Positions 2,521-63,830 of a stretch of 64,000 nucleotides of DNA are shown piece by piece; position 1 is the stretch's first letter, and every line of letters begins with the position of its first letter. The notes beneath the pieces were generated by a model that did no database searches, had not been told where the DNA came from, and saw only the letters and a list, made by a program, of their open reading frames with translations. A program made the position numbers and the translations under genes. Location: positions 11,348,591-11,412,590 of the forward strand of contig CAJINV010000002.1 in the NCBI GenBank assembly GCA_905178155.1, written 5' to 3'. This DNA comes from Amoebophrya sp. A120. Lineage: Eukaryota > Protista > Dinoflagellata.

Positions 2521-5500
2521 CTAGATGTAGCAGGGCTCCACGTACTTGTGGCAACGCTGGTTGCAAAGTGGACACCTGGGAGCGCGCAGCTGGAAGAAAC
2601 AGTCCTTGCAGAGCGAAATGTGGTTGCAGGGGAGCAGCAACACGCTTTTTTTCTGGTCCAGACACGCGCAGCAAAGCGTTTCCAGGGGCGGTCCGGACTC
2701 GGGATGGTAGTTCTGCATGCGCTATCAAATGTAAAAATGTCTGGGTCTGGAAGATTGCGAGATTTGTCATGCATATTTCGGATCACGCAAATGGCGTCTG
2801 ATGTAGGCAAAAGCATCACAGGTTTTGCGCACGCCTCATGATGCGTGTCCCGCATGAGAAACTTCCTACTTGCGTGCCAAGAAATGGACAGCTTTTGGCG
2901 CTCATGCAACACAAGTTTTTGTGTGTTTCAGAGTTTGCATCACAAGTTCCAACCCTCCCAGACCCAGACATTTTTACATTTGATATGCGCTCCACAAGGT
3001 GTTGCAGGTTCCGTACCTGGATGGCGCGCCCGGTATGGATGTGTCAGGTTTGAAATCGTCAGAGTTGAAATAGTTTGTCATGCATAAAATGGATGCCAGT
3101 TGGAGCCCAGTTTTCAAGTGGCGCATGACAAGTTTTGGCGGTGCCTAAATCCAGTTTGTAATGCTGTTTGGGTAAGAAAGACGCGTTTTGTCATGCTACT
3201 TTGGCAGCTCTATTTCTGCCCCTCAACAGGCTTGCAATCTGCCTCCCTTGCCGACTCTGCAAGACAGGCACTTTGTGGGTTGCATTTTATGCATCGCAAA
3301 TTATTTCAACTTTGACGATTTCAATCCTGACGCTTCCATACCCGGACTCCGGCGCGTACTCGATCCAGACGTAGGTGAGCAGAAAGGTAACAAGCACCAC
3401 CAACAAGGCGCGCCCCAGCGTCCATCCGCTCCAGAGTACAGCCCGCAAATTTTCGGCGCTAGGTAAAAGCACGAACGAAGGACGAGAGGCTTTAGAAGCA
3501 TTGGTCTGGAGCTGGTGCACCTGTTTCGATGAGGTCGTCCCTGCGCTCGCTCGGCTCGCTAGATGCGCTGCTGTTGCCGAGGAGGACGGAGACGGCGACC
3601 TCCATGACCACATCAATCCACCGTCAGTGAACACGTCGTCAATGTCGCCTTCCGTTTGCCCCCGCGCAAACACTTCCTCTTCTACGTATAATGCGGAGGG
3701 GAAAAACGTCGTGTGACAATACCCCCGGAGTTTGGTGTCGTGCAGGTGGCGGAAGGTGTCCTGGAGGTAAGACATGCCGCGTGAGGAGATGTAAAAAGGA
3801 AAGTACAGAACAAAGTAGAAAGTGACCAGAATGAGCACCAGGCGTGCAACCAGTTCTGCGGGGGTTGTCTTTTTGGGTAGATGTGGAAGTTCTGGCTCTA
3901 CTACTTCCACCGAAGTAGACCTGCTCGTTCCCCGATGAACTTCCGCCAGCTCGACGACCAGCTCGTCCACTGATGCAGGAGCAAGAACTTCTGCACAAAC
4001 AAGGTCTTCTACTTCCGCAGTTCTTAATACTATCTGACCTTCGTCCCTTGTCGTTGTTTGGCGACCGGTCGGAGTTGGCAATATTACCTCGTAGTTCTCT
4101 GGTGTAGTCCTGGAACAAGTCAATGCTCGCTCGCGCAAAGCTGCGCTGGCTCGCGCGCCGTTCATTTCGTCTGCTCGCGACCTGGCGGCCGTTGTATCCG
4201 TTTCGGTAGTTTCCCGCCCCTGTAACTCGTGGTGGTGGATCGCTGCAGCGCGCAGCTCGTCGTTGGCCAAATCTTTTTCGTCTACTTCCCTTACAGTTAT
4301 TTCATCTCGCTCTGCTTGTAGCCCTTCTGCCACAACAAGAACGTCGGTCGTGCCATTCGTTCTTGTCCCTCTATTCTCGACGACGTCGTCCCGATTCGCG
4401 GCTACGGGCTTGCCTAGCTCCCGAAGCCTCTGCGCAAAATTGTACACTCCGAGGGCGAGCAACGCAACCACTATCCATCGTAGCCAAAACTGCACCACGC
4501 CGCGCAGCGCGACGGATGAAGTGAACGACCTTGATGTCGCGGTCAAGGCAGCTCCTGCGCCCGTGGTGCCACCACCTCCACCAGCCAAAGGGCCGGAAAA
4601 TAAGCCCACCAGAGGGAAACTTTGGTTCTGCAGCTCGAGGCACAGCAAAACAGCAACACAGACAGCACTCCATGTTCCGCTGACGACCAGTGACGGTTCG
4701 CGCAAATACCGAACGTACACCGGATACGCTTTTGTCAGGACACGCGGCGCGCCGTCTTTCCACAGGATGACGAGACTGGGAAAAACCAAATCCCTAAAAA
4801 ACCCGCACAGGAGCAACAGGAGCATCTTTACCACGTCAGCCAGGAATTCCTTACTCCGTTCCGGCAAAAGCTGCGCGCACACACGATCCAACTGTCGCAC
4901 GAATGCGTTATCGCAGAGTAGGTTCGAGAGGAGGCAAAACAGCCTCATCAGGTCAGGCGCATGCGACGGGTCTGCTCCTTGGTCCTCCTCGCGGCGGGGC
5001 GGGGGGCCGCTACGCTTATGATTGTCTGTTTTCTCTTTGTCGTCTGCATTATTGTCGGCACCACCATCATGTTTTTGTTTTTCAACATCTCGTTTTTGCG
5101 CGGGCAAATCTCTATCTTTAAGCGCGTCTACGACGCCGGTGCGGACAAAGGTACGTGACGATGAGGAGCTCGAGGAGGACGAAGACGACCCAGTGTCCTC
5201 GACCAGGATTTGGTCCGTAATGTTGTCTAACATGCCGTTGTAATGATGCCGGTATTCTTCTTGTTCACCTCGGCGTGCGGCCGTACCTCGTCTCCCGCTG
5301 GAGCTGGACTTGATTGTGTTCTGTGCAACTGTCTGGTGCTGGTTGCTCCTTGTATCGGTACTAAGGTAAGTTGTCGGCCGGTCAACAGCTTCGCCACCTT
5401 CATCCGGTGCTGCAGGCGCCTGAAAATCCTGGTGAGGACTCTCGTCCGGTGCCATGTCTGCCATCTTCGCACTTTTCCGTTCTCTCCTCGCGGGAGCACC

Positions 5501-13200: not shown

Positions 13201-15268
13201 GCGTCGCTGGGGACCACGCGGCACGCTTCGGGCGAAGCGTTTCGCGACGGGGACCTACGGAGAGACACGACACGAAGCTCATAGCTTCGCCGTCGCGTCG
13301 GCAGGGACCGTATATACGCTTCGCTTGAAGCATGCCCCAATGGTGGCCCAAGAGGTAGCACCAAGCTCCTGTGGAGAGGGTGCCTGGGTCACACAGCAGG
13401 CTTCGTGGAAGCGTGGCGCGACGGGGGGACCACAGAGCGGACACCAAACCCTTGCAGGGTTGGTGTCGACAGGGACAGGGACCGCGCAGAACGCTTCGTG
13501 AGAAGCGCGCCCCGAGGGGGACCTGCGGAGACCAACACACCACACCGAGCCGTGGTGGAGTTGATGTCGACGGGGACAACGAACACGCTTCGCAAAAGCG
13601 CGTCGCGATGGGGACTTACGGAGACGCGCGACACCAAACCTGTAGCAAGTTTGCAACACGCGTCGGCGGGGACCACGTGGCACGCTTCGCGTGCCAGAGT
13701 ATGGCCGGGAGCGTGGCAGAGTATGGCCGGCGCGTCTTCACTGGAGTGCACCTGCGTGCCAGCACCTCCAGCTTAGACCTCCAAGGCGTGCGCCTCAGCT
13801 CTCGCTGCAGCACCACCCCGGGGTGCGTCGCATACATCTGCCGCCTCGCGCGCCTTCACTGGAGTGCACCTGCTTGCCAGCACCTCCAGGGAAACGACAA
13901 CACGCGCCCGGCGCGCGCCGTTGCCCCTACAGCGGTGTCGCTCCCGTTAGCTGGCAGCGCTTAACCTCATTTCGCTATTGATCGATATGTTGGACGCGAA
14001 ATACCAAATAAATTTCAATACCTTCTCAAACGTCCGTGCCTTCTTCCGAGACTGTGCTCCCCGAGGCAGAGTTTGAGCAAGTAGTCCTCAGACAGCACCT
14101 CCGGTCTGCAGCCGTGGCAGGTGAGCAGCCGCGCAATGTACTCCGCCGAGAAGATAATGACGCACACGACCTCCATCTGGTCAAAGACCGGCAACTGCTT
14201 TGGTATACAGTCGTCGCGGCAGTACTCAAAGGTCGCCAGGGGCCACGCCTGCCGGTGCACGGTGTCTACGTTGCAGGTGGTTTCGCACGCGGTGTTGGGC
14301 CACACCTTGAACTCGGGCAGGGTGGCCACGATGAAGAGGATGGAGGAGAACATGATGGTCGCGAGCAGGAAAAAGGACAGCCACTTGGCGAGCCGGCAGC
14401 TGGAGGGGTCCTCGAACACCATGAAGACCCGCTCCATGGTGGTGAGCTGGATGAAAAAGCTGGAATTTTTCCACACGGCCACGAACTCCCACCACCCCAC
14501 CACGTATCAACGGTAAAAGTGTCTGGATCTGGAAGATTCTGACACTTGTCATGCACGTTTTGCATGGGCCATGATGTCTGTGATGCATACCCTAGCAATA
14601 CAGATTTTTTGAGGGCTTCTTGATGCGTATTCCGCATGCCAAATGCCTTCTCAGCGTAGCAAAAACTGCATTCCCTTTGCTGGTACTCATGCAATCAAGA
14701 ATTTTTTGGAATCCAGATGCAGCATCACAAGTTGCATTCTTCCAGACCCAGACATTTTTACATTTGATACCGCGCCGCTGCCGTCCACGTCGTAGTGCTC
14801 GGAGCGGAACACCGTGTCCTCGTCCCCGATCACTTTCAGCACCCGCCGCATGGCCCGCTCGAAGTGCTGGATGTGGATCTCGTCGGCGTTGGACGGGTGG
14901 ATACTAAACCGGTCGGACAGGGTCTGGAACAGCTTCCGGAACAGTCCGAGCCCCAGTTCTAACTTCGCGGGGGGAAGCATGCTCTGGTTCTCGCCGTCCA
15001 TGTTTAGAAAGTCGAACCGGGACAAATCCACCGGGGGCAACGCCCGTATCGGCGCCTCGTCGTCCGTCATCTTTTTCAGGAACGAGTCCCCCGACTGGGA
15101 CACCGAGCGGAGCTTCCCTTGCTCCATCACCGGGTCCACCTGCTTCTTGTTCGTATTGTAGTTTGTAGAATTGGACCCAGGGGTCTCCGTGCGCGGTGTT
15201 GGGTCCTCCATCCCCGGTCCGCCGCCCGGACTGATCTGGTCCTTGTTGCCGCCGAAAAAACTACTCAT
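7276..15268 (-). CDS. Voltage-gated potassium channel with N-terminal EF-hand and C-terminal C2 domains (multi-exon)
   Basis: EF-hand DVDGSGAV|GWWEF is rebuilt across an introner. S4 is LRVVRLTRLFRFMK and the pore is TTVGYGD. Canonical GT-AG introns 14021-11802 and 11203-9055 join in frame to C2-like segments (RRIQIEVYDEN...FLGEV; LTVKIIRARYL...VNPVWNEEVSF). The link to the C2 exon is inferred. Confidence 0.8.
9234..11047. mobile_element. Putative non-autonomous TIR DNA element (~1.8 kb) inside a canonical intron
   Basis: Imperfect ~70-bp TIRs (tttactgaaaaggcgacgggggggatctgtctg... / ...cagaatagcccccccgtcttgtcggtaaa). Internal repeats of cttcgtgcacgcgaaggtatgg in both orientations. Degenerate ~45-bp tandem repeats at ~10810-10960. 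No recognisable protein. Confidence 0.6.
12287..12578. other. Assembly gap (N run)
   Basis: 292 Ns; flanks 11979-12286 and 12579-12886 are identical. Confidence 0.99.
12639..13995. repeat. GC-rich intronic insert with degenerate internal repeats (probable mobile-element remnant)
   Basis: Recurrent cgcgacggggacc...cgcttcg units and a duplicated cttcactggagtgcacctg...ccagcacctcca. Flanked by a 60-bp copy of the host exon end. Confidence 0.5.
14505..14769. mobile_element. Introner family A (265 bp)
   Basis: TIR tatcaacggtaaaagtgtctggatctggaag / cttccagacccagacatttttacatttgata. DR ccacg / ccgcg (1 mismatch). Removal rebuilds the EF-hand. Confidence 0.93.
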
Positions 15269-15279
15269 GATATTCCGCT

Positions 15280-15561
15280 TATCCTGTGTAAAAACGTCCC
15301 CACCCCAGAGTTGTCATGCAGATTTGCAATTGCAGGAACATTTGTAATGCGCGTCCCCAAGGGAGGCGCTTCCAATCGTGTTTTGGCATTTGTAATGCTG
15401 CAAAAAGGATAGGCAGATGGATTTGTGATGCGGCTGTCCAGCATGCTAATATGCACTACATTACGGACTGCAACTTGTCATGCGTGGCTCCCAAAACTTA
15501 TGGATTTGTGTTGCTACGTTCCCAACTTGACTATGGGGTGGGGACGTTTTTGCATATGATA
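15280..15561. mobile_element. Introner family C (282 bp), in the probable 5' UTR of the K channel gene
   Basis: TIR tatcctgtgtaaaaacgtccccacccca / tggggtggggacgtttttgcatatgata. DR ccgct at 15275-15279 and 15562-15566. Confidence 0.9.
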
Positions 15562-17188
15562 CCGCTGGTGCTGTCTTCATCCGGTTAAGGCACACTCCTG
15601 CTGCAACAAGGTTGATGTCTCCTGCTTCATGCGATCAGATGAGATCCGGCTGAGGAGGGCCGCTGAGAAAATCCGACGGAGGCATACATAATTGTATCAA
15701 TTTTTGGCAAAATTGACGTCAAGGGGCAAGGGGGGCCGCTAAAAGTAGAGGTATAATGTAACACTAACATATTCGAGTGGAAGCCCGAAATTTAGTAAGG
15801 GTGAATTAGGACGGAGGGTGATTCAATGTGGTTCCTGTTAGCAAGTTTCATCAAGTTCAAAAGAACGTGAAAACGAGAAGGAGGTCGCAAAAGCAAAACC
15901 GAATACTCAGGATTGAATTCTGTGCGTCTGCGTGGTACTTTGACGCGCGACAACGGAGAGGACGACGAGCAAAAGTTTTCCATGGGCGCAGCACTGCGCC
16001 TGCTTTTCTATCGTCGTACGATAAAACTATCCATTGAGGGGACAGAGCCTCTACTTCCTTGTTGGACGACGTCTTGACATCTAACCGAGCCATCGTCTGC
16101 AGCCTACTTATATGTATCTCTGGACGAACCGAGGTAAGGAACTTCATGGCTCGATTTTCAATACTTAATATGCGACCGATTTATGTCATTATCAATTTCA
16201 ATAAGCAAAAATTAGTTCATTCAGGAAAAATCAAACAACCAGCGCTGTCTTCATCTGTCCCATGTCGTGCTGGTATGAGACAAGAAAAAAAAGAAAGGAT
16301 ATTCCAGGATGAGAGAAGTAGAGAATAGGACTTTATTAACCTGAGCAAATAATCGTTTGTCCATTTACTTAGATTGATCTCGACCTTGTTACTCAGGAGT
16401 TCTTGGGGAGCGGAAGAGAAGATAGGGGTAGGGTTGCTACCTTATGTCATAACTATAAATATTACTAACTGGTCAAAGAATTCGGAGTTGGTGCTCGGTC
16501 AGCGTCAGGAAAGAATGAGAAAGAGAAACAAAAAGAAAATGTGAAGAAATAAAAAATAAAATGCGAAAAAAGTGAATGCGTATGCTAAAATCTAAATTAC
16601 GTGAAAAGCAAAAAGGAAAATGAAGTGGAGACGAGGTATGTACTGACAGCAACCAATGAATGTGGTGCAGCCAACAAAGGTACTCGTACTTATCCGTAAA
16701 AAAGCTTGCTAGATTCGATTCCCATTCCACCTAGGAAAGCTGGTCAAGCAAGTTCATACTGTCCTCGACAATCCGCTTGATGCGAGAACCTCCAGGTTGT
16801 AATCTTAATCTGCAACTGCAAGTGGTCCACCGAGCACTTCTTGTATATGTACTTTCGGTCATCTTCCACTTCCTGTCTGCTTGATAAGATATGCCTTTGT
16901 TTTGGCTCATCTGCCCTCGTCGTGCGTGTCTACGGCATCAAGCGCAATGCAAAAAGTTAACATATACTCGTCCTGCAGAGACTACTATATCAAAAAGACA
17001 GAAAGAGAGGAGAGCGTGAGGCTCTATCACCTCTTTTTCTTTGAGTTTGACGTGTTCTACTTCTACTTCTTGTAAATAAACAACTACCTACCGTACAGGT
17101 TTAGCGTAACTACTGAAACGAAAGAATTAGAACTCAAGTGAAAATTAGTATTGTACCCGCAGAGCTACACCTACGACAGCTATGATGC

Positions 17189-20100
17189 TCACCGTGAGAG
17201 GTCGAGTTCCAGAGCGGCGTGTATTTTGTCTAGTACGTCGGTCATGCGGTTGAGCTTCCCCTCGACTGTATCCATTCGCCCGTTGAGTGCGTCCATCTGC
17301 CCGTGCAGAACACGAGCTGCGTCTCCGCCGCCCACTGAGACTGTAGAAACGGCTCCTCCGTCGCGGCTTTGCGCCCTGCTGAGGCTAGGCGTTTCGGCGC
17401 TGTCCTCTACATCTCCTGGAGCTGGACCTAGTGTCAGTTTGTTTTCAGCGAGCGTACATACTCCTATATGGCCGGACAAAAGTCCTTAATTCCGGATTTT
17501 GCTAGCGATAAAAATAGATAATTTTTTCTATAAATTGAGTGGGTGCGAATTCGGCAGAGCACAGACTCGATGCGCTCAAAGGCCGCAGGTCTTTGTGTTT
17601 TGGTCTCGAGATCATTTCCATCTGGCAGCATTTTTTTTATGATTGCACGAATGCGAACAGTGGGCGTTGCAGTTCTTGCACTTGGGGCGCCCACGCCTCC
17701 GCAAGAAAGCAAACAAACTCGCATGGGCCGCCTTGTATCCAGCGTCTACGAACTAGCTGGCCCATGAGGCATCTTGACCAGTGAGCACGCCGTTCCTGGC
17801 GGGTGCGCCAATAGATGTAGGACCGGCCCCCAGCAGGCCTGCTGCTCCGACACTATTGGGTTGCCAAACATAGGGCAAACCCGCCACGGCCAGGGCGATA
17901 GAACCAAGCTCGCCAATTAATTTGCAGAAAAAAGGGCGACGGCCCAAGCGCGGCGGCGTTCAATTTAATTGATTTCCTAAGGCCGGGCGGCAATAGAATA
18001 GAGGCGCGAGGCCAATAGACTAAGAGGCGCGAGGCCACTAGACTAGAGGGCGTGGGCTTCTGTGATAGTGCTCGCGGGCGCTGGGAAATCAATTAAATTG
18101 AGGGTCGCCACTTTGCAACCCGCCGCCGGCGAGCAGGCAAACCATGCGAAAACAGCGAAGCCAGCGACAGCTCTGGCGCTGCGATCGCCACGATATTAAA
18201 GCAAAACGGCCCCCCGCCTTCGCGCGGCGGCGCCCTGGCGAGCGCCCACCCAATTGGCGCAGTTGCCCGGGGCGGCGTCTCACGCAGATTCTCTTCGGGC
18301 GCAGCAACAGGAAGGCCCCCGCCGTTTTACCCTGCGGCGCGCAATGGGGATCGTTGGCAATCAAGCTAAAGCCCTCCGAAGGCAGCGCGCTTGCCTATTG
18401 TGTGGCGCTTGTTGTTCTACACCTCCTGGAGCTGGACCTAGTGTCAGTTGTTTTTTCCAAAGGTAAGTCCATTAGTAGAAGATGCACCGTATCCAGCGAG
18501 CGTACATACTCGTACTCCTACTCCAGGTCACAAATATTTATAACGATTAAGGCGAGCTGCTTCACTTAGTAGAAGCAACATCAGAATACGAGTAGGGGCG
18601 ATCGTCTTCTAGTAGGTTCAGTGTATGCATGCTCCAGCAGTGGTTTTCTTTTTTTCCATTCGTGCAAAACACGTGATGTCACCTTTCCGTTCTAATACAC
18701 CATCCATTGCTGGTCGAAGCAAGAATAGATCAGCTAGTATTGCTTCGACCAGCAAAAATAAGTACTAAAACGCAGAGTGCTCCGTACTAGCTTCTCCTAG
18801 AGCTAGACCCAGAGTGGTCACAGTCATAATTTCATCTGGCACCAGTTGGAAGTTCATCTTCATCATCATCTTCATCTGCTATACGACGGGGGAACAAGTA
18901 TTAATTAATAGGTACCTGACGCTGCCGCGGGCGGGAGAAGGGATTTCGATCTTGTCCTGCTTCCGCCGGACAAACCTCCGGAGGCTAGCTGCATCCGGTG
19001 TGACGTGAGCATTTTTTGCACGTCGTTTTTCGTTTGCTTCGCTATCTTCAACACCTTGGTGAGCTCAATCGGCGCCTCGGACGTGACGCGCTCCCGCATC
19101 AGGTCGCAGAACTCGTCAATCCCGACGGAGTTGTCCCCGTCCACGTCCAGCGTGTCGAATAACTGCACCGGGGATTCGTTGCCCAGGAAATGCTGCAACT
19201 CCACCTCTATCTCCGGGTTCGTCTCTAATCCCTCGAGTATGGCGTTCTCAAATGTTACATTCTCAACTGTTACATGAATTTGTCATGCAAGAACAGCAAA
19301 AGCGAACGCGGGAAGATTGCGCGCTTTGCATTACAAATTTGGAGCAGATCCAGGTGGTGTTTAGCCCTTCGAGAATTTGTCATGCGAAACACCTTGATCG
19401 TGTGGCGGCTTATGGTCATTTTGCATGACAAATCATGTAACAGTTGAGAATGTAACATTTGAGAACGCCATATCGAGCAGCTCCTCCTTGGAAATCTCGC
19501 CGGACCCGTCCCTGTCGAGCAGAACGAAGATTGCTTTGATTTGCGGCATATGCATTGCAAAAGCATCGTATTCGTACTAGTACAAATTGCATTACAAATT
19601 TTATCAGAAAGAAAAATGGAATTTGTAATGCTAATTGAGGTAAAAAGGTAGGTTTGTCATGCAAGATTTTTTTTTTTTCATTGGGCCCCGCTATTTTTCG
19701 CATATATCAAATTCATCACTAAGTTAGGAGGCCGGTGGCCGTTGCCTAACATGTGATGCAGTTCTACGAATTCACCTGCCTGCCGCAGCAGGTATCAGGG
19801 CCGACACCTTTCACACAGTTGAGCAGAGCGCGTTTATACCATCTTTTTTGTTTTTGTTTTTCTCTTACTTTCGACGCCCGGTCTTGCAGGACTCTCGTCC
19901 TGTGGTCTCTTGGGCTGTATACTGCTTGTCATGCAAGATTGCAATTAGTACGAGTACGATACTTTTGCACAGGATACGGCATCATCTGCTCCAGCTTTTT
20001 TTTCGCGTACACCGCGTTCACCTCCTTGTCATTCTTCGACGATTCCAGCGCGTTCTCGACGAGCACGGCGGTGACCAGGTTCATCATCGCGATACTGACC

Positions 20101-35235: not shown

Positions 35236-38200
35236 TTACGTATTTTCTTTTTCCTCTACTCCCGTAGTCTCTCGTGTCGGCCTGGCTTCGCTTTGACCGG
35301 GCCCGGTGGAGGCATTACCTCCACTCAAGATAACATCACTTTTGACCTCGCCAGAAACTACGCTGGAAGTTGTAGTGGTTTGATTTTTTCGTGCAGGAAC
35401 TGCAACTACACATCCGTCGATGTTGACGCGAGAAACAACTGCGCCACCAGCTTCATCGTCGATTGACGGTTCCCTCGGGCAGTTCTTGATGATGCCGTCA
35501 AAGTCATAAAAATCGGTGAGCAGAAATTTTGGTTTCTCCCTGTCCAGGTAAGGCATGATCACCTGGCGAAGACAGCGATCGGAGACTTTACCCGACAAGG
35601 GATCCAACTCCACCTCCACAGGCCAGCAGCTTTTACGCTGCAGCGCGAGCAAGTCCCGCGTCAAGTTGTTCACTCTGCCCCGAGCTGGTGCAGCCGGCTC
35701 GTCTTGTTCCCCACCAGTCATCTCAGTATTCTCATTGTGATTACTAGAGTCGGTTCCATCGGGAGCTCTGAGTGCGCTGTTTTCATTTGTTCCAAGTACA
35801 GCGGAAAGCAAACTCTGTCTTGCTTGTTCTTGCTCGCTTTCACGACCTAGGAGCATGGCAGCAGCAGTAGGAGGAACAACAGAGGCGCTCTGTCGTGTTG
35901 TTGATTCCCTCGCTGAAGTAGAGCTTGAGGACACAGAGCCGCCAACATCTTCGGAATTTTTGCCTCTGCTGGTTCCGTCTTGCGGCTGCAGTGCCGCCGC
36001 GGGGCCCGTGGTGGATTGGCCTTGCATTTCGACATCTTGTTCTTTGGCATTTCCAGTGTGGTGCTGCGCCGCGAGACCCGGGCCTGTTCCGCCTACGCAT
36101 ACGTCGTCTTTCTTGGTGTCCTCGTCGTGTTCTTGTTGACCGACTCTGGTTCTTTGCGGATTAGAAACTCCAACATGATGTAGTTCGTGATGGTCTTCGA
36201 CGTCCCCTTGCGGTTGTAGCTCGACGGAGGATCCCCATCCCGCCCTGTTGACATGATTATGATCCCCTGTTCCAGCTGCCGCTGCGTTGCTCTGGTTGGC
36301 AAGCAGCTCCTGATCGTTCTCCCGCGGCCCGTTATTAATAGTAGAATGGTTGTGTCGTTCATCTTGTGCAGGAGCAGCTATGCCTTCGTCAGTGGTCTGG
36401 CCGTTTTCATCTTCAACTTCGTCGCCTTGTTGCTCCATGTCAGCATCCTCGTGTTCGTCGCCTACTTGTTCGAAGTCAGATTCAGACAGATCCTCATCGT
36501 CATCGTCGTCCTCTTCGTCTTCGTCGCCCACCTCCTCCTCGTCGATTATGATTATGCCTGCTCCGCGACCGGCCATGGGGCCGACCTCTTGTTCATCATC
36601 CTGCTCGTCTTGATCGACCAGAGCAGCTGGTTCGCCTAAGTCGTCACCAGCAGCGTCATGCTCATTCTCGTCATCAGCCAAATTCCCGTTCTCCAGGTGC
36701 TCCTCCTTCCGCCGCCAAAAGTACAGCGAAACCTGGGCAAACTGGGGCAGCGAGTACTTCTTGTGCACCGCACACATCTATCAAATGCAAAAATGTCTGG
36801 GTCTGGAAGAATGCAACTTGTGTTGATACTGCGTCTGCATTATCCAAAAATGAAAATCTGTATTGCATGAACAGCAAAAGAGGTCTGGTTTTGGCCACGG
36901 CGAGATGGCATTTCTCATGCGGTATAGGCATCAGAAAGCCCTCACAAGATCTGTGATGCTAGGGCATGCATCGCAGACATCAGGAGTCACGCAAAATGTG
37001 CATGACAAACCGGCGGGATATAAGTTGGGGAGCACTGATAGATAAAAAGGTAGCATGCACAGGGGAGAGTGGCCCCTGTTGCAATGCTGACCTATAAAGA
37101 AAGAGAAAGATCACGAAGATCCGTATCGTACAAGCAAAAGGACCCACGCATTGCGGGGCGGGATCCGTATCGTGAAAGATCCAGTAGTTTTTCTAGTCTA
37201 TGCTGTGCCCCTTACTAGCTTGCCGTCGAGTAGAAGTAGAGCTGATTTTATTGCAATTGCCGCTTTTGCGATATTTTTAGCGGACCCCGCCAAAATACCC
37301 TCATGCTTTTCCCGAGTAAACTCATTGCAACTAGAAACATCCCCTTCCTGCTTCGGCGCACCCCATCTGCCTAGTCGCCCCTAGGTAGATGAGGGAATTT
37401 TTTGTGTGGGCTTCTTCCTGCTTAATTAATCTGACAGGGGCTACGTCTTTTTTTTCTGTCTTGCCAGCAGAGTGGGTGAGGGAACTAAACAGGGATCGAC
37501 AACGAAGTGCAGGACCAGAGGACGAGAGCCGAAAAGGTACAAATCGGGAAAAAATGCCGTATACCCGCGTAACCTGGTATGTGAATTGTGCTACACTCTT
37601 CACATTTCAGAGATCGCACCCGCTCGCGCAAAAAATTAGATAGTGAATGATGAAAAATTTGCGAGCCAATAAAAAAAAAAAAAAATGCGCATGACAAACC
37701 TTGCCTCCTTCCAGACCCAGACTACATTTTTACATTTGATAACATCTCTGTCGGCTGGCGAATAGGCTGCCCTTCGCGGTTTCGGGGTACGAACTCTTTC
37801 GGGGGCACGGACGCAAGCTGGTACAAGTTGCGGACCTGGTGATGAAGACGACACTATCTTCACAATGAGTGGATAAATGAAGTGCTGAAATAACGCGCAG
37901 TGGGCTCATAGCGCTGTGCGCGTGTGCGCACTCAGGACTACCTGCGAGGAGTCTCTGTTTTGCTCCTGCACACCATAAATCCCACAAAAAAAAGAAGAAC
38001 GAGTTCTACATGTAAAAAAACCGAAAAAACCGAAACCTAAATCCAGCATCAGCATGTCATCTGAATTGCAAATGAAAGCAGTAATTTTGATGTGTACTCA
38101 CTGCAGCAATGGTAGAAAGAGACGAACAACGATACCAGCGATCTTGAATGCGCGTCCTGTGGAAACTCGAGCTGGTCGAGGATAGCGCTCGCGTTCGCTG

Positions 38201-41200
38201 GTCCTGTGTACTCCCCGTCATGGTGCTGGATTTGCCGAACCAGCTGATGGAGTTGTAATTGTTGATGTAGCTCATGCTCATCGACCGAGAGTTTGACTGA
38301 GAAAAATAACAATAGTGAAACTAACTCCAGCTCCATACATTTACATGCATACTAAACCATTATAAGTGCAGTGTGTAGATGTACCACTTCGGCGCAGTGG
38401 AGCACCGCATGCGCTAGCAGGCTGGGCAACTCTAACAAGTAGTCGACTTCCAAGATCGTGAGCTCCAGCAGGTAACTGGCGATCAAATTTCTGAGGACGA
38501 AAAGGGCCAGGCCCTGCGAGTCGACCTTGATGTTGTCCTGAGGTTTGGACAGCATGTCGACGAAACCCGTGCGCGAAATGGACACAAGCAATCTGTCCTT
38601 CTTAGGGGTAGCACTTGGCAGGTAAAATTCTGCCCAAACGGGAACCGTTCTTGAAGATCGTGATGTTGCCACAGGTCGCCCTGTCGCGGTCCTTGGCAGA
38701 CTCGTTGTTGATATCCTTTGTTTTTGTAGTCCATCGCTTTCATCTCCGGAAGCAGGAGCAAGAGACACAACCTCGGCGGGCTCTTGCTCGTTGTTCGTTA
38801 GTAGGTCGATGTCTTCATCTTCTGGAAGTAGGTAGTTCTTGTTTGGACTAGAAGTCAACTTCCGCTGTTGTTCGACGCTTGGGCGGAGGTTCCGAACTGT
38901 CAAAAGCTCCTCTTGCTGCTCTTCCTTGAAAATCTGGAGAAATGACACTGCGGTGGGTGCGCGCAGCACGTAACCGTATTTCAGCAGGGTGGCCAGTTAT
39001 CAAGTGTAAAAGTGTCTGGGTCTGGATCTGGAAGATTGCCAGGCTTGTCATGCATATTTTGCATAACCCATGATGCCTGTAATGCATGGCCGAGCATCAC
39101 AGATTTTTAAAGGGCCTTCTGATGCGTATTCCGCATGAGAAACGCCCACTCCGCGTAGCACAAACTGAACTCCTCTTGCTGGTCATGCAATACAGATTTT
39201 TTTTACCTTCCAAAGACAGCATCACAAGTTGCAACCTTCCAGACCCAGACATTTTTACATTTGATACCAGTACATCAAACTCCATTTGTCGGATGTTATC
39301 CTCGGTGTACGTGTGTTCGCAAATGAAACCTGAGTTGCATTTTTTTTTGTAGTAGTTACTCTTACTCAATCACAACAATACTATCCAGAGCCAAGCAAAG
39401 GACAGAAAGAAAACTAGCATCTATGTATCACCGTATTCATCTTCAATGGTGACTTCAAAGTTGTTTTGCTTTTGCTTTACCTCTACCTCTTTTAGGTGGT
39501 TTATTTGGTATAAATATTTATAATACCGAGTTCATCGACAATCGCCGGCCTCGTTTCCTCTACCTTGCTCGCGATGAGCAGGCACGCCAGGCCGACGAGC
39601 TGCAGCTTCTTGCGGGACTGCAAAGCGTGGTGGTTGAGAAACCGGTCCAGGATTTGGATGGCCAGGAACAGCGTGGATATCCATTCGAACTTGAATTTGT
39701 GATGAACTTCAATCAGCCAGTCGACCAGCACGGAGCGCATCTCCACCGTTATGTCCTTCTGATTCTCGTACATGACCATCTTCTCCTTCAAAAAAAGCCG
39801 CTCCGTTTCAAACAAATACTTCCTCGCTGCAACACCGTAGTAGTCAAACTCTTGCTCATCTTCTTTGAAGAGGGGTGATTCTTCTTTACCTCGACATCCG
39901 TGTTTTACACCTCCTCCTGGCACGACCGCTCTACTTGAACAAGACTTGGTCGTTCCTGTACTAGAACCCTTGGATCTAAAAGTTGTATCTTCTTCGCATG
40001 AGGTGGACGATTTCGCAGATAAGCTTCTTGCTCTCGTCCTTGGAGGCGCGAACGGCCTCTTGAAGTCCATCGGCAAATCTGGGCTGAACCGCTCAAAGTC
40101 CCGTAGCTTCGCGTGCGCAGCCCAGAAGCTCTGTCGTGTGCGCCATTGCGGTACGGCATCCAGCCGCTCCGACGGCAGCCATGCGGGATTGGGCTGCATA
40201 TAATAATTTTGAAGTGTTGCTTGCGAGTAGATCACCGCAGTGTTGCTGGCTGGGTCTTGCGGTACTAGCGGTACTAGTGCTCCTCCGCCCGCATCATTGT
40301 GGTAGGGCGCCCCGGCTGTCGCTATGGCGTAGTTCCTTGCGTTTCTCCCACTCCAGCACGTGTCGGCCGGAGATGCGTTGTACTTTTTCCAGATGTTTTC
40401 CGGATCCACATCCCCTCGTATGGCGTCGAAGTACTCGTGGGCCAGCGCCTCCTGAATCTGCATGCGCTTCTTTGGGTCCATGGTCAGCAGCGCCCGGAGC
40501 AGCCGCACCCCTTTCTCGCCGCCAATGTTCGCCAAAAACCGCACCTGTTCCGCGTTGTACCGGGCTCGGAGCTGCTTTCTCGGCAAGGCGAGCTCCTCGT
40601 CGCGAAAGGAAAAGAGTTTGCAGGGCCGCCAGAAAGGGAAGTCGCGGCCTCGCACCACGTCCCACTCAATCGGGGTACCCAACAGCCCGAACAGCTGGTA
40701 CACCCAACTCACTTCGCTGTCCAACACCAAACTACCGAGGTTTTGCGGCAGCCAGTGGGATACCCATGAGCAGCCGATCTTGTTCATGCACAGGGTCTAT
40801 CAAATGTAAAAATGTCTGGGTCTGGAAGAATGCGCGATTTGTCATGCTGCTTTTCCATGACCCATGAGGTCTGGAATGCAGGACCTAGCATGACAGATTC
40901 TGCGCGACCTTTCTAATGCCTATCCTGCGTGAGAAACTACCTCCCGACTTGGTCAAAACTAGACGACTTTTGGTAATCATGCAACACAGATTTTTGCATG
41001 CTGCAGATTTAGCATGACAAGTTGCAATCTTCCAGACCCAGACACTTTTACATTTGATAGGGTCCCCAACAGCAGCCCGCACTGCCACAGGTCGCTGTCG
41101 AACAGCGGGCGGCTGGGCGACCGCGGCGGTATGGAAGCGTCAGGTTTGAAATCGACAAAGTTGAAATGATTTGTCATGCATAAAATGCAACTCAGAGACT

Positions 41201-44200
41201 GTCTCTATTGCAGAGGACGCAAGGGAGGCAGATTGTAGTGCTGGCAAGGGTCCAGAATTGGGTTGCTGATTAGCATGACAGAGGGGAGTCCTTTTGCCCG
41301 AAACAGCATGACAGACTTGCTCTAGAAGCCAGGAAAATTTGTCATGCGCCAATTAAAAACTAGGCGCCAACTGGTATCCGTTTTACGCATCACAAATTAC
41401 TTCAACTCTGACGATTTCGATCCTGACACTCCCATAGAAGGCGGGGGACGCGCGGTAGACGAGGCACTCGCGCTCGTGCCGGTGATCGCCGAGTTCATAT
41501 GGAAGCAGGTGCCTTTCGGGACCGTATCTTTTGGGTTTGCTGTGGTCTCAGCCCCGGATGTTGTAGATGATCCAGACGACGAAGCTGCTGCATCAACTGT
41601 GACCCCTGCCGTCTTATTTGCTCGTTCCATCAACGTGGAAGCCGGAGGACCACGTACTTGCTGTGAAGATATTTTTTTTTTTCGTGCGAACAGCAAGAGA
41701 ACAGGAGTAGTCAGGATCTTGTACCTCATCCTGTGAGAGAACCAAAAATAGAACATTCAAAAGCTAGCAAAGCTACTCAGTCACTGAAAATTATGCGTCG
41801 CACGCTCATACATCGAGTTGTTTGAATCCGAAAGCATCAACGTAGATGTCGATCACCAACTTCTGCTGGTGCGCGTGAGTACTTAGTACTTGCAAAATCA
41901 TTTCCAAAAATTTCTATATGTAAAATCAAAAAAAGCAGCAGTCTAACAAGTAGATCACTGTACGACTTCTGCGTCTGCCGGCGTTCTGGTAGCACGTTCG
42001 ACAGGCGCAGTCGCTCCTGGCTCCCCTTGAGAAGGTAGTAAAAGCGCCTCTGGCGGTTTTTTCACGTAGGAGATGCCTAAATTATGGCACACTCAAACGT
42101 TACATTGATCGCTGTTCCAGGACTTTGGCCGGATTTGTTGTGCGAAGCACAAGCACCTGTGGCTACCTATGCATGACCCAGGGCCAGGAGGTCGTGGCTC
42201 GCATGACAAATTCATCCTGAAGCGCAATCTGGCACTCAAATCCGTGCCAAATTTGTGATGCAGATGCAAGCACAAGCAGCGAAAGCTTCTTGTTGTCTCT
42301 TCTGCTTTTCGTTTCTTTTGCCTTTCGTTTACGTTTTGCTGTTCTTGCATAACAAAGCACCACGGAATCACCATCAAGGAAGAGCGATCGATGGAACATT
42401 AAAATTTGAGAGCGCCATAAAAGTTTTCCCGATCGTGGGACAGCTTCTCGGACGGTTTTTCCTGAATCCCGTACCCGAAAAAAAAATCCAGTAGCTCGAT
42501 GGGGCTCCCTATCCTGAGTAACGACGTCCCCTTTTCAAGCTTGTCATGTAAATTTGGGCATGCTCATGATGTTTCTCATGCGGCTCTTGTTCTAGTCGTC
42601 CTCTCGTGTATTTAGTTTGGAAGCGATGAAACAAATTCTACTTCATTATTGTTATTCTCTATATGAGGATCCGGATCTGTGCTGCGGCTACACTAGCTGC
42701 AGCGAGGCACGAAATCTGAAGATCCTTCCAGGTTCGTCAAGCCTCAGAACAAACATCTTCCGAGTTGTTCCTTGTGTTGGCAATTTCTCAACATCACCGT
42801 CTAGGAACTTGTTTTTGCTCAGGATACGCCCAGTCGTCTCATCGAGCACAACCTTGCTGGCGTCCAGGTTTCCGTGCCCATTCCCGGTCGAGTGCAAGCG
42901 GTGCAGCAGCAAAAGCACGTCCCACATCATGACCTTAATCGTACGCGGCGTCAGCCCGTGCTTCCGGGCGTTGTTCACATCTTCTGGGCCAGGCTCGGCC
43001 GCTTGTTGTTCAACATCATCTTCCAAGTGTACGTTGCGCTGAAAGTCGTAGCCTCGGGCTGCGGCCTGCCGCTGCTTGTCGTGGCATCGGAGGTCCCGCC
43101 CCACAGTATTTTTCGCTTGTTGGGACGATGAGGACGAGGAGGACAAAGATGATGTCTCAGCTCCCCCACCAGCCGCGCCTCCGGCAGATCCGGGAGCCAG
43201 GAGAGCACCGGAACCGCCCTGGTGTCGTGGCAGGTCGTGTGCAGTCGCCGGGGCCGCCGCTGGGTTGCTGGACACTACCCAATCTCTCGCCTTGTTTCGC
43301 GCGGCAGCCTGCTCGGCTGCCAACCGCGGATCGGGATCTGCAATGTTAACGCCGGTGTTATTCGCAGTTTGGGCAAGAGCAGTTGGTGCAGTTGTAGCTT
43401 CCCCGCACTTATTTGGCGGCGGCATTTTTGAAGAAGACGATGAACTTGAGGCTGCGGCAAGAGGAACTTCCCCCGAAGATGATGTCGTTGAGCTGGTGCA
43501 AGAAGTAGTGTTAGAAGATACCAGCAACCCGCCTTCCGAGGTGCCTTGGTCTCCGGGTGGAATGCTCGTGTTTGGAGCTGCTGTCGACACCGTGCTGGAG
43601 TTCGATAGCGTGTTGAGCTTCAGAAAGAGTGATGAAGACGATGAGGAGGACGACCGAGCGGAAGCCGCACCACCAGCGTCGGCTGCTGGTCCACTAGCGT
43701 CGACTCCAGCGTTGTGGTTGGCTTTGCCTCGAGCCGCCGCTCGGGAAGCGGCGCTGCCCCGCTTCAGCAGCCCGCCTCCCCCGCCGGCAGTTGTGGTAGT
43801 GGCAGGGAAACTATCAGAGGAGCTCGAGGAGGAAGAGGACGAGGATGAGCCCGCCATAGAAGGTAGTAGCAGTGGTGGGTGCTGAGGGTGATCGACATGG
43901 CTTGCACTAGAAGCAGGCGCCGCAATTCTTGACGGTAGAAGATCCACCCTATCAAACATTTTCATTTCCATTTTCAGTAGATGATGAAGATGAACCCCTG
44001 CACTTGTTGGTCTTGAGAAAAAAGAAAGACGAAACAAACCCTCGTCCACTTCTCCGAAATAAAACTACGGTGGAGCTCCAGCTCAACATTCATTTCTCCC
44101 CTGTGCCTACGCATGTGTACAATCGGAATTGACAAAAAAGCAAACAGACAATAATACTGCATATCTGTGTCCATTGCCTCAAGAGTGTCGTCTTGCTCGT

Positions 44201-46564
44201 CTCCTCTATGGTGTTCACCTGGTGCGAAATCCCACACAACCACATTCTCCTGCGGCAGAAGATTCCTTTCGGTCTGCAGTTCTTGCTCCCGCGCCGCCAG
44301 GTCAATGTGATGCACTCTAAGACGCTCGGGCACAACCTCCAGCGCGCCTGCTGCACCAGCACCCAATTGCACGTGGTCCTCGTCCATGACCATGTTTTGC
44401 TGCTCGACGTCGGGCACTGCATGATTGTTGGGCAGGTGCGTTTGTACTCGCTGCAGGACATGATTTTCCGATTGCCCTTCCTCGCCATCACCATCATCGT
44501 CCCGGTCCCGGACAAGGACTTCAATTTCCTCGACGACAGCAGCTGGAGCAGCACCCCCGCCAACCTCTGTAGCTTCCACAATACAACTCTGGTGTGCCGG
44601 TACCGTCTCCTTATGCAAACGCTGCAGCTGCGCAGCCCGGAGCTCCTTCGTGGCTTGCTCCTTCAGCAGAGTGGACAGCAAAAAGGGAACACGCCGGAAG
44701 ATGAAGACCACGTTTCGGCGGTCAGCGACTAGTGCTACCTTCATCACATGGTTGTCGTGCAGAAATGGGTGGCACAGGTACCGAACCTATTGTAGTTATG
44801 ATGTTGACAAGAACTTAGCTTAGTGACGACATGCAGAAAAATCGACCCTGCATGAAGAGCTACTCTAAGAAAAAAAGCCTAGAGATGAAGCTGCTCATGC
44901 AACAACAAGGACGGGACACAGAACCAGCATCTTCGCCCCAAGCGAATTGCATCTAGTATCTATAGCTAAATGTTGCTAACACGTTGCCAAGTATAAGCAA
45001 TTTGTTCACACCGTGGCGTGCGCCATGCCGTCGGCGTCGGGCAACGGAGCTTCCACAAGTAAAGTCTGCCGCTCGCTGCATTTGCTGGTGTAAAACCAGC
45101 TGCGCACAATATGCGAAAACACGCACTCGGCAGATTTCGGAAGGTGCTCATCGTGCTGTTGGACGAAGTTCCTGGAGAGTGTTATTTTTCTCTTCATCCT
45201 GGTCATAATGGGAAGATAGAAACGCGACGCTCGCGCGCGCCGTGGTAGAGACCAAAGAAAAAATGTCTGTGTATCAGTATCGTCCATCACGTTTAATCGC
45301 ATGCATCACGATGTTGATGATGATGTATTATTGTGCTGATGTACTAGTGAAGTCACATGCAAATTCGAATGCGTCTTTCCACAGGAAAAAACAAAAAGTT
45401 ATTGTACTGGAAGAAGTTTTGCGTGATGATCTTTTCCAGCTCCCCTTTGGCCGTGTTCTGGTCCTTTCGCGGAATGACGCGATTGTAAGTAATGCGCACG
45501 CAATCCACCCAGAGGTGAGGGGCGTAGGCGAGTTCCAGGAAACGCTTGCACTATCCTGCACAAAAGTATCGCGCTCGTACTCATTGCAACCATACATGGC
45601 AAAGACAACCACATGTACTGCTACTACATCTTTCTTAGGCAAATCACCACTACATGTTGAGTTTTGCTCTTCAGAAAGTTTAAGTTTGTACAAGTATATG
45701 TTGTATATGCAATCTTCACTCGGCCGTTACTTTTGCAATGCATATGCACACCGGCGGCACGATTCCGCCCAGCTCATCCGGGCGTAGGAAGGCGAAGATC
45801 AGCAGCCAATTGTCATCAGACAAGTCTGGATAGTAGAGCTCCGTCATAGTGCTTTCGTCGCGTTGGTCTTCTTGTTCAACAACAGGAGTGTCAATCGCGC
45901 CTTCCAAACTCAACAACTCGTCGGTGTTGCAGCCGGCTATAGCTCGTCCCGTGTCTTCCTGGTTTTCCTGCGAGTAATTTTCTCGTGACGCGCAGCTGCG
46001 CCCCGTGCCCGTGCGCCTTGTTGTTGTATGATTCGGGTTTATTATCTGCAGGTCCTGCAGTTCGTCTCCTGCGGCAACGCCAATGTCGTCCAGTCTATCT
46101 TCTGCCGCGTTTGGATTTTTTTGCCAGGATAGCTGCTGCACTCCGCCGTGACAGTACAAAGCAGAGGGAGACAAAGGAGACTCCGCCACTGCAAGAACCC
46201 CGCGCTCGCGGCCCGCCTCGCTCCGAGTACAACTGTTGACAAAAATGCTACGTTGACGCGTTTCCCTTTCCTGTTCTTCCGGAACCACACAGTTCCTAGC
46301 GGAAGATCCAGGTGGATCTGGGGGGCGGCCGTAACTTTCAGGATAGCTGGGAAGGGTAGAAGCAGAAGTGCCTACTGGCCGCTGCAGGTCATGCTCCTGC
46401 TGCTGCTGAAGCAGCCGCGCCGGAGTGGGAACGTTTCGAAAAGACCTGCTTCCACCTGAGGGTGAGGGTCTCCAGCTCGTCCTAGATGCTCGCTTATCTT
46501 CTTCTGGATGACGACTGTGGTTCGTCTGGTTGCTCGGCAGAATGTCGCCTCTTACGCTTGCCAT
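35236..46564 (-). CDS. F-box + CDK-like pseudokinase + cyclin (A/B-type) fusion protein, multi-exon with 5 introners
   Basis: F-box-like YPDLSDDNWLLIFAFLRPDELGGIVPPVC. Kinase motifs HGNLDASKVVL, KPPEALL, DLWQCGLLL, LLTMDPKKRMQIQEALAHEYF. Cyclin box MRSVLVDWLIEVH...LQLVGLACLLIASKVEE lies in the same ORF as the kinase C-lobe (39501..40787). Cyclin C-terminal AVHKKYS. The F-box link is inferred. Confidence 0.75.
36779..37741. mobile_element. Introner family A (963 bp), reversed orientation, with nested insertion
   Basis: Family A TIRs; DR acatc at 36774-36778 and 37742-37746. Removal gives ...RQPTEM|CAVHKKYS. Confidence 0.92.
37012..37681 (+). mobile_element. Nested polyA-tailed retroposon (SINE-like or 5'-truncated non-LTR), 670 bp
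   Basis: Flanked by 19-bp direct repeats aaaatgtgcatgacaaacc (36993-37011) and aaaatgcgcatgacaaacc (37682-37700). Ends in aat plus an A-run. Removal returns the host to 274 bp. Confidence 0.75.
38998..39266. mobile_element. Introner family A (269 bp)
   Basis: Family A TIRs; DR ccagt. Removal gives cyclin MEFDVL|ATLLKYGYVLRAPTAVSFL. Confidence 0.95.
40798..41059. mobile_element. Introner family A (262 bp)
   Basis: Family A TIRs; DR gggtc. Removal gives DLWQCGLLLGT|LCMNKIG. Confidence 0.95.
41130..41436. mobile_element. Introner family B (307 bp)
   Basis: TIR tatggaagcgtcaggtttgaaatcgacaaagttgaa / ttcaactctgacgatttcgatcctgacactcccata. DR degenerate (ggcgg / gaagg). Confidence 0.9.
42083..42419. 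mobile_element. Degenerate introner related to family D (337 bp)
   Basis: Ends tatggcacactcaaa...gatcgct / agcgatc...tttgagagcgccata. DR eroded (taaat / aaagt). Removing element plus 5 bp gives HDRENF|GISYVKKPPEALL (kinase subdomain VIII-like). Confidence 0.75.
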
Positions 46565-61999: not shown

Positions 62000-63830
62000 A
62001 GATTGGGAACAAAGCACGGCGATCGCGTACTAGAGGCCTGCATCCGCTTGCTCTACTTCTTCTCCATCGAGGTTAGCGACCTCCTCGTCCCTGAAGGATG
62101 ATGACATTTTTAACAACGAAGGACTGCCTTCCAGTAGCTGCGAAAGTCGCTCGCTTCGCCGAGGATTCCGATGGCAGGTTTCGGTTTCGGTCACGACATC
62201 AACTCCATCTTCGACATCAGTTTCCTCCACAGCCTTCGTGGTCTTTCCTGCTGCAGGGAAGGCGCTTGCGGCGGAAGAACAGGAAGTAGAGCTCGTCGAT
62301 TTGGTTGCGCTTATTGCGACAGACAGGGTCGCCGTTGATGGCGGAGATGATGAAGATGTTGATGACCGTGTATTTCTACCCGCGGAAGAAATTAGAGCTT
62401 CATCTAGTTCTACACCTTTGCTAGGATCATGATCCAGCAGTCGTCCTTCGGAAATGCTGGCCGAAGAGGACGCGGCGCCGGCTTCGCTGTAAGACGCCAG
62501 GAAGAGTCTTTGCCCGACGAGCGTGCTGTCCTGCGTGCCGTCGACGCTATTTGGCGACGTAGGAGAGGAATACCTGAAGTGAGAAAAATCTGCCGACGAC
62601 GATCCTACGTGCTGGCGGTCGTGGTGTCCATATTTCTAGGTCGTTCGTATATCCATTATATGCACATTTGGATGTTTTCGAGCATAATCAATGCCGCAGC
62701 CGGTAGGCGACTTCCATTCCGATGAATTGATTTGTTCTGACGTGATGGTCCACCAGCAAATTAGTGCATTTTTGGAAGTCGTCACTCAGTAGCCACCCGC
62801 CTCGTCGGGACTGACACAAATCAACAGGAAATCCTAGAAGAAGATATCACGTGGTTCACGGAAGTATTTATTCTGTTGTACCCGCCTGTGCTTTTTTTCA
62901 GTCGCGACACACTTTTCGGGGACGGGGACACAGAGGTCGCAACCGCGCCAATGTCGCAGATTATCGAGAGGTTAAATCCCCCCTCCCCATATTGAAAAGT
63001 TACGCTTTCAAGAATTTACGTTCTTGGGTTGCTGATTTGCGGCCACAAATCAGATTTGTCTTGCAAGAAGACAAGCGCAACGGCTTCCCTCCGATTATGG
63101 AAGCGAATATGTGGCAACATGCTGTACCTGTAGGGCCTAGAGGGCAGCCATTTGCAATGCTAAACAACTGGACCCAGACGCCCCTACCTAGGCTGGGTAT
63201 CTGGCCTGCTCAATGCCTTACTGCAAGACGGAGCGCATGATTTTGATTTGTGTACGCAAATATACTGAGCGTCAGCGACTCCGTTTCGATATGGGAAGGG
63301 GGCACTTTTCCTTTTGATACAGATCTCTTCTTCTTCTGTCAGACAGCTCAGCAACCCACCACTGACCTCATCCACCTCCACTCCGGCCGATGTTGGGGAT
63401 GGTATCTTGTTCAACCTCATCATGTTCAACATCATGTCGCCTTGCGCCCCTTGTGGTCCCCGATTCGGCTCGCCCGTGCCTCTACTTGCTGCAGCTCCGT
63501 GCATGCTGTCTGGAATAATAATAATTCGCCCCGAAGAAATTCCCTCGGACGAGCAGCTTAATATGGCTTCATCATCTTGTCCTTCGAGAAATTCGTGCAT
63601 GTTCTTCGGTGTGCGCGTCTTGTTCGTGCCGTGGTAGGTACTTTCGCTCGCTCCGCCCGAAGCGCCAGTCGTCGTCTTGTTGGCGCCATTGGGCGAAGTT
63701 CGAAAGCTCCCTGCCGGCGAGGAGCGACGAGAGTCCGAGATGGATGACCCGGCCTTGCTTGTCTGGCTGATCCGTCGGCAGCTGGGTGTCACCAGATGGC
63801 TCGTGGTGGTCGTTGCGGTGGAGGTCAAAA
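62000..63830 (-). CDS. 3' part of a low-complexity hypothetical protein continuing beyond the window
   Basis: S/T/G-rich ORF 63184..63828 and acidic pieces near 62030-62600 on the minus strand. Confidence 0.35.

Follow-up and report, generated by a model that had tools for sequence, protein, structure and literature searches.

A single short word, TTGTVATGC, recurs within the introners of Amoebophrya sp. A120, where it is conserved above its surroundings and spaced in register with the turns of the DNA helix. Judging from its sequence conservation and arrangement, we propose that it is probably a subterminal double-stranded-DNA binding site for a protein mobilising these elements.

The stretch of 64 kb that was analysed (hereinafter, the window) contains 17 elements with terminal inverted repeats (TIRs), 5,573 bp in total, with TAT..ATA ends and mostly perfect 5-bp target-site duplications (TSDs) (Table 1). 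A scan that ignored the word and relied on TA..TA ends, a 5-bp duplication and terminal complementarity yielded 13 clear elements, each with a perfect 5-bp repeat and a TIR match of at least 14/20, with 0.15 expected per window; four further elements with decayed duplications were taken in from alignments. The elements show the defining features of MITEs, namely, TIRs, TSDs of fixed length, no coding capacity and many dispersed copies, and have no target-site preference. These are the published non-canonical introners of Amoebophrya sp. A120: organism, inverted repeats starting with TAT, direct repeats at the boundaries, non-canonical junctions, lengths of about 240-300 nt and the multiplicity of families all agree with the published descriptions in the text of PMC7789003 and PMC12130899. 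The exon at 19980-21122 is 100% identical at the protein level to A120 protein P0001. Contigs of sequencing run X1 are unbroken across the element ends, and for each end, 61-204 contigs carry other flanks.

Element C1 of family C lies immediately before the start codon (ATG at 15268) of a gene on the minus strand, in what is probably its 5' UTR, and folds into a hairpin (z -3.86) because of its TIRs. For the long composite A3, a full-length copy with 89% identity is present at a different locus in a close relative (L029 10001-10972) and, therefore, the long composite form itself moved. In many contigs of run X1, one element ends 26-40 bases before the next, so that very short exons lie between introners elsewhere; contigs of this run also contain shorter forms of family E and family C copies with a duplicated 31-32-bp unit that includes the word.

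Table 1. Introner elements of the window and the parts of element C1 (positions in the window; a dot marks elements listed without strand)
Feature	Position	Strand	Remarks
A1 (family A)	2723..2985	.	word at offsets 41 and 40 from its two ends
B1 (family B)	3034..3340	.	four exact words, the first at offset 41
A2 (family A)	14505..14769	.	imperfect duplication, 4/5; 270 nt skipped in probable RNA contig
C1 (family C)	15280..15561	.	282 bp, TAT..ATA
C1 left 5-bp TSD	15275..15279	+	
C1 left TIR arm	15280..15311	+	32 nt, 88% complementary to right arm
C1 word copy	15311..15319	+	31 bp from left end
C1 word copy	15342..15350	+	offset 62, 31 after the first
C1 word copy	15390..15398	+	offset 110
C1 word copy	15423..15431	+	offset 143, 33 after the third
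C1 word copy	15475..15483	+	offset 195
C1 one-mismatch word copy	15506..15514	+	offset 226, 31 after the fifth; conserved in family C consensus
C1 right TIR arm	15530..15561	-	
C1 right 5-bp TSD	15562..15566	+	
D1 (family D)	19238..19472	.	four exact words; intron of ion-channel gene; removal restores A120 protein P0001
E1 (family E, long form)	19549..19976	.	terminal word copies face outward; intron of the ion-channel gene of D1
A3 (family A ends)	36779..37741	.	963-bp composite; two exact words
A4 (family A)	38998..39266	.	word-blind scan
A5 (family A)	40798..41059	.	splits a cyclin-domain ORF
B2 (family B)	41130..41436	.	orientation opposite to B1; duplication decayed
G	42083..42419	.	D-like TIR, duplication 3/5; two exact words (42201, 42253)
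C2 (C-like)	42510..42826	.	duplication 4/5; one-mismatch copies only, offsets 31 and 63
E2 (family E)	45552..45744	.	perfect duplication; internal word absent; removal joins a 63+289-codon frame
B3 (family B)	56499..56805	.	word-blind scan
D2 (family D)	57519..57755	.	word-blind scan
D3 (family D)	59264..59506	.	word-blind scan
F1 (family F)	62962..63319	.	one-mismatch copies only, though 26/29 family F members have the exact word

Other repeats in the window comprise two abutting GC-rich satellites at 24275-27567, with a 32-bp unit repeated 54 times and a unit of about 25 bp repeated 61 times, of opposite GC skew; a 25-40-bp unit in nested repeats, both inverted and direct, at 9797-10335, lacking TAT ends, a duplication or the word; purine/pyrimidine tandem repeats in an inverted arrangement at the window start (1-627); inverted arms around palindromes at 12067-12882; and a perfect 25-bp hairpin at 28500-28550.

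On both strands of the window, TTGTVATGC has 39 exact matches, compared with a mean of 1.75 and a largest count of 6 in 100 shuffles. All but one of these copies (38/39) fall inside the 17 elements and the remaining one, at position 987, is the only copy in the other ~58 kb, so that the word is by no means equally frequent outside introners. The first-pass annotation of this DNA had pointed to this word as shared by all introner families despite different TIRs. The five copies it listed for C1 are present with the letters given, at 15311, 15342, 15390, 15423 and 15475, and those listed for families A, B, D, E and the element at 42083 are present as well, some of them one base away from the position originally given (verified positions 2764, 2937, 3075, 41171, 19280, 19423, 19589, 19654, 19926, 42201 and 42253). 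The generality of the word holds at the level of families, in that it is found in 10/10 family consensuses, but not for each individual element: an exact copy is present in only 14 of the 17 window elements, being absent from 45552-45744, 42510-42826 and 62962-63319, and one element of the relative (L031 2936-3321) is free of the word. The difference between TIRs likewise stands in part: those of family B share only 6-7 of 27 positions with those of A, C and H, whereas C, F, I and J share 13-20 of 27. The TATC..AAAA start is common to the TIRs of A, C, E, H, F and K.

More copies of the elements were obtained by scanning metagenome contigs with the family A TIR, which yielded at least 130 loci, at least 129 of them from one assembly, a sample biased to family A. 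The source organism shows 92-96% protein identity to A120 and thus is a relative, not the same strain. Among the matches listed, the one from another assembly (L091) was rejected as a chance match in coding DNA. Among viral contigs, there were no matches to an A-family TIR and two matches to the paired word, without a TIR or a duplication. A word-blind scan for elements in 629,751 non-redundant bp of the relative, run alongside a Markov control, gave 342 elements, compared with 0 in the control. The strict cases confirm the 5-bp duplication previously noted for introners, with 5 bp in 263 elements, 6 bp in one and 4 bp in four; 55 matches with a "two-bp TSD" were also obtained. When the TIR scan was made blind to the termini, the leading class among the matches listed was TAT with a 5-bp TSD (256), and the other matches listed were palindromes and cross-element pairs.

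With the window copies included, the exact word is present in 156/159 members of family A, 38/40 of E, 36/37 of C, 25/30 of H, 26/29 of F, 15/15 of D, 10/10 of B, 8/9 of I, 4/4 of J and 2/3 of K. A blind ranking of words over the ten family consensuses returned TTGTNATGC in all ten; the best word outside it was found in 4/10. Outside the masked elements of the relative, 148 copies were detected against 16.6 expected, and 121 remained after a looser scan; of the 148, 91 occur in clusters, and among 25 contexts sampled, many resemble decayed elements, but not all copies are explained in this way. These outside copies weigh against a clean confinement of the word to introners.

Several elements of the relative stand apart. 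The 386-bp TAT..ATA element at L031 2936-3321 has a perfect TIR and a 5-bp duplication but no word even at one mismatch, and may be a member of a second system. At L068 11256-14195, a 2,940-bp element with a perfect 30-nt TIR and a 5-bp duplication splits a long ORF in frame; it contains its own internal repeats, lacks the exact word and, having no long ORF, was rejected as an autonomous copy. The 866-bp element at L009 11405-12270, with a TIR of ~50 bp starting with TAC, no word and other internal repeats, is non-coding and was rejected for this role as well. In several element-rich loci, conserved genes are split into several ORF pieces: L007 2635-6090, L067 1661-7131 and window positions 39504-41436, the genes being those for a C5 DNA methylase, a type II topoisomerase and a cyclin.

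The word is better conserved than the adjacent positions, both in the families of the window and in those of the relative. In leave-one-out comparisons of the window families, one-mismatch sites were identical at 668/797 positions (0.84) compared with 946/1494 (0.63) for flanks, the pairs not being independent. For 24 interior sites in the eight families with at least nine members, conservation was 0.87 compared with 0.75 in 618 overlapping control windows; two of the 24 sites are poorly conserved (0.58 and 0.67). The conservation profile has a steep step at the edges of the word and a dip at its middle base, which is as variable as the flanks except that T is nearly excluded (3%). In pairs of copies at any divergence, mismatches are fewer in the word than at other interior positions, with a ratio of 0.2-0.5 in the closest bin. 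Together, the conservation and the pairwise mismatches indicate that the word is under selection. An age test based on duplication decay gave a deviation of the word of 0.162 in both the 5/5 and 4/5 classes.

The conservation profile bears on the reading under which the word has no function now and is a leftover from an ancestor, rich in repeats, that all families shared. Some families indeed share material: unmasked modules link E with H, C with H, H with K and B with J, and the TIRs group in clans, some with a common start, so that the families are in part related. Tandem duplications of the 31-32-bp unit holding the word, seen in family C copies, would also fit a relic. However, once the word is masked, the family consensuses barely align, with seven weak matches among 45 pairs at E of 0.007 or worse; the spacers between phased copies are not homologous; and conservation drops sharply at the word edges and the middle base. 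The relic reading, which we consider highly improbable, is largely refuted already.

The arrangement of the word favours a protein-binding site. Measured from the end of the element, the first site that points inward is found at 31-32 bp for 105 ends (families C, H, I, K and a subfamily of A), at 39-43 bp for 306 ends (A, B, D, F, J) and at 52-55 bp for 20 ends (F, O), with 33-38 bp for 23 ends. Family E is an exception, its terminal copies being reversed and pointing outward. In the A subfamily (for example, L084 301-552), the first site is at 32 rather than 39-41, one helical turn shorter, at 41 ends with few intermediates; this subfamily may be a single amplified deletion. Taking 15 family modes as independent gives p of about 0.001 for the end offsets, which is overstated; at this level, a step of 11-11.5 bp fits slightly better than 10.5 bp (R 0.70-0.72 compared with 0.64).

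Inside the elements, 11 of the 22 same-strand pairs of consensus sites within 60 bp are spaced by 31-33 bp (null mean 1.6, maximum 7 in 5000), and the spacers of such pairs are not homologous, with 4-11 of 22-24 bases identical. Pairs on opposite strands cluster at 16-17 and 46-50 bp. At 10.5 bp, same-strand pairs are in phase (z +3.7) and opposite-strand pairs in anti-phase (z -3.3); a 16-bp lattice of sites is also apparent (z 5.2, 0 of 3000). The signed period peaks at 10.3-10.4 bp and is -0.09 at 11.0. The phasing persists in five subsets (p of 0.03 or better) and the 16-bp term in four of the five; the phasing p-values overstate independence because the families are partly related by descent. 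In individual copies, 479 of 537 spacings are within 1 bp of the consensus, and the larger shifts are mostly +3 to +8 rather than whole turns, so there is no support for phase-preserving indels in single copies. Such phasing is what subunits of a protein lined up on one side of the double helix would be expected to produce, a reading that rests on the pitch of DNA. The earlier suggestion that the word is a protein-binding site is thus in line with a conserved block with one free base, fixed distances to the ends, helical phasing and non-homologous spacers, all of which suggest such a role. One protein, several related transposases sharing a DNA-binding domain, or a host protein would fit these data equally well. 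We found no paper on the helical phasing of transposon ends.

The protein in question might be a co-opted architectural or chromatin protein of the host that binds the word on DNA and bends or wraps the element, either for transposition or as a mark for co-transcriptional splicing. Phasing at 10.3-10.4 bp fits any protein surface on one face of DNA, and a host protein would explain both the occurrence of the word in families with unrelated TIRs (B and A, 7/27) and the lack of a detected transposase, as well as the 121-148 copies outside recognised elements in the relative. The TTTGT half of the word may resemble HMG-box sites, which would count in favour of a host factor. Resemblances to two other sites, the Sox-Oct composite site of animals and the RBFOX word, are likely coincidental. 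Yet only one copy, about the chance level, occurs in the ~58 kb of the window outside the elements (genes, canonical introns and intergenic DNA); the 1,488-nt GT-AG intron at 17428-18915 contains none; and the fixed distances to the cleavage ends point to an end-processing complex. We regard the host-protein explanation as rather unlikely. The same intron, on the minus strand, includes a near copy of its own acceptor region at ~18420-18450, and splicing uses the distal site.

Direct transcript evidence covers positions 13000-21500. Within this range, elements A2, C1, D1 and E1 are skipped exactly, each together with one 5-bp duplication, in contigs of runs X3/X6, which are probable RNA and also skip a canonical intron; for C1, an X3 contig skips 15275-15561. 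Run X9 (RNA, same species label) contributed only 11 partial reads. When D1 and E1 are taken out, each with five bases, residues 1-491 of the A120 protein are recovered free of gaps. More generally, of 269 elements removed together with five bases, 88 left at least 100 open codons to either side, compared with 17-26 when the element was removed together with 3, 4, 6 or 7 bases. For the word-poor elements (45552, 42510, 62962, L031, L068), splicing is deduced from frame restoration.

These data allow the DNA-site reading to be weighed against one in which the word acts as an RNA signal to enable non-canonical splicing, whether as a branch-point-like GCAUBACAA close to the 3' end or as the binding site of a protein that takes the place of U1. 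In favour of the RNA reading, A120 has no detectable U1 snRNA according to the text of PMC7789003, and a GT..AG intron does not result from any of the six possible cut registers in the four spliced elements (4/4). Symmetric families carry the word inside the TIR stem, ~40 nt from each end in whichever orientation the element is read, and an 11-bp step describes the end offsets as well as one of 10.5. However, the internal spacing fits the pitch of DNA, not 11 bp. Of 80 elements whose host strand is firm, 10 have the branch-point-like 3' copy in the transcribed orientation only, 16 in the opposite orientation only and 11 in neither; the skew is largest in family A (12 against 24), and families with the word strongly on one strand are inserted in both directions (C 4/5, H 3/3). 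E1 is spliced exactly without such a 3' copy; frames are restored as often without an exact word (9/16) as with it (150/253); and an Rfam search of 14400-20100 gave no match. The lack of a strand bias relative to host transcription makes an RNA signal unlikely, and we assign this reading a low probability; the evidence favours action of the word on DNA rather than RNA. The "excision factor" for splicing that was initially suggested as a candidate binder is disfavoured.

The search for a transposase was negative. No matches to transposase families were found in Pfam searches with the 100 longest of 265 ORFs from about 0.7 Mb, and no coding element was found among TIR pairs up to locus length; accordingly, the DDE transposase flanked by these TIRs that the first-pass annotation proposed to look for was not detected within this scope. 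Its lead to IS3EU transposons fared better in one respect than in another. TA..TA termini, with TAT and a 5-bp TSD as the leading class, resemble IS3EU/GingerRoot elements, and the TAYGG..CCRTA ends described for IS3EU of rust fungi match families B and D, as well as G (PMC10045372, PMC12730594, PMC6839031). As correctly stated earlier, these sources give 6-bp duplications for IS3EU, and mostly 6 bp for IS3EU/GingerRoot, whereas the elements of the window and the relative have 5 bp (263 against one with 6 bp), so they differ from this group in duplication length; GingerRoot TIRs are described as 100-150 bp long. A published A120 family (family 38), portrayed in the text of PMC12130899 as Ginger-like, with a 5-bp TSD, TA/TA termini and ORFs similar to LTR integrase regions, is, on its published description, the best lead for the parent. 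A 5-bp TSD also characterises hAT5, a further possible affiliation, as defined in the text of PMC12730594; in the published A120 table, as seen in PMC12130899, fam135 is the sole row with an hAT5 terminal match.

Binding of transposases to subterminal repeats has precedents. For the Emigrant MITE, PMC1636448 describes a transposase that binds subterminal repeats and is sensitive to their arrangement, and cites subterminal binding also for Tc1/mariner, hAT and CACTA elements. The A120 elements similarly contain a short word repeated inside the ends and conserved above its flanks. Like the Emigrant-Lemi1 system, they are non-coding and have TIRs, with short words that recur internally in either orientation; in Emigrant, the arrangement of such words is important for cooperative binding (PMC1636448). 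In contrast, the repeats of Emigrant are partial copies of the TIR and are confined to a single family, according to the same text, whereas the A120 word is unrelated to the TIRs and occurs in ten families. The A120 array also differs from that of Emigrant in extending over the whole element, in being phased and in belonging to elements that are also introns.

Another parallel is V(D)J recombination, whose signals, with 12/23 spacers, set a 9-bp inner site apart from the cleavage tip by distances differing from one another by whole helical turns. The A120 ends share this layout, but the sequence and termini are different, there are many internal copies, and there is no pairing of short and long ends (A 41/39, B 41/41, K 31/31).

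Under the preferred reading of the word as a DNA site of the mobilising machinery, several subunits of a transposase or of an accessory protein would sit along the array, all on one side of the helix. With its distance of three, four or five turns from the tip, the first site would place the catalytic subunit on the TAT end, and the array would serve as the loading platform of the transposition complex, with selection acting each time a copy moves. If only copies with an intact array were amplified, the word and its spacing would stay the same, whereas the spacers and the interiors of the TIRs would be free to drift. In that case, the families are non-autonomous descendants of one unrecognised lineage at the superfamily level, for which the best lead is on the IS3EU/GingerRoot side, with an integrase-like enzyme; splicing would rest on the TIR stem and the duplication, not on the word. 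A bolder version, which we consider improbable, is that the phased array is read in every family by a single protein so far unrecognised, either a divergent integrase-like transposase or a DNA-binding protein of the host, and that the complex formed on the DNA also tags the element to be removed exactly from the transcript as it is made. If true, the thousands of A120 introners with different TIRs would be a single mobile system, in an organism without U1 snRNA.

The introners of A120 were described by Farhat et al. in 2021 as having inverted repeats starting with TAT and 3-5-nt direct repeats; the text of that paper reports no transposase and no U1 snRNA in A120, leaves mobility and splicing of the introners open, and argues against general transposase-mediated mobilisation (PMC7789003). 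A shared internal word or its spacing is not described in the text of PMC7789003, PMC12130899 and PMC9860276. Thus, the elements were known already, and the shared, phased signal is apparently undescribed. The word offers a bait for pull-down and a signature of the autonomous parent, and independent mutation of the word and the TIR would separate mobility from splicing. The question addressed is how the tens of thousands of non-canonical introns of Amoebophrya spread and are spliced: a single conserved, phased word across families argues for one kind of machinery, and the common phased array speaks for transposase-mediated mobilisation, against the argument of Farhat et al.
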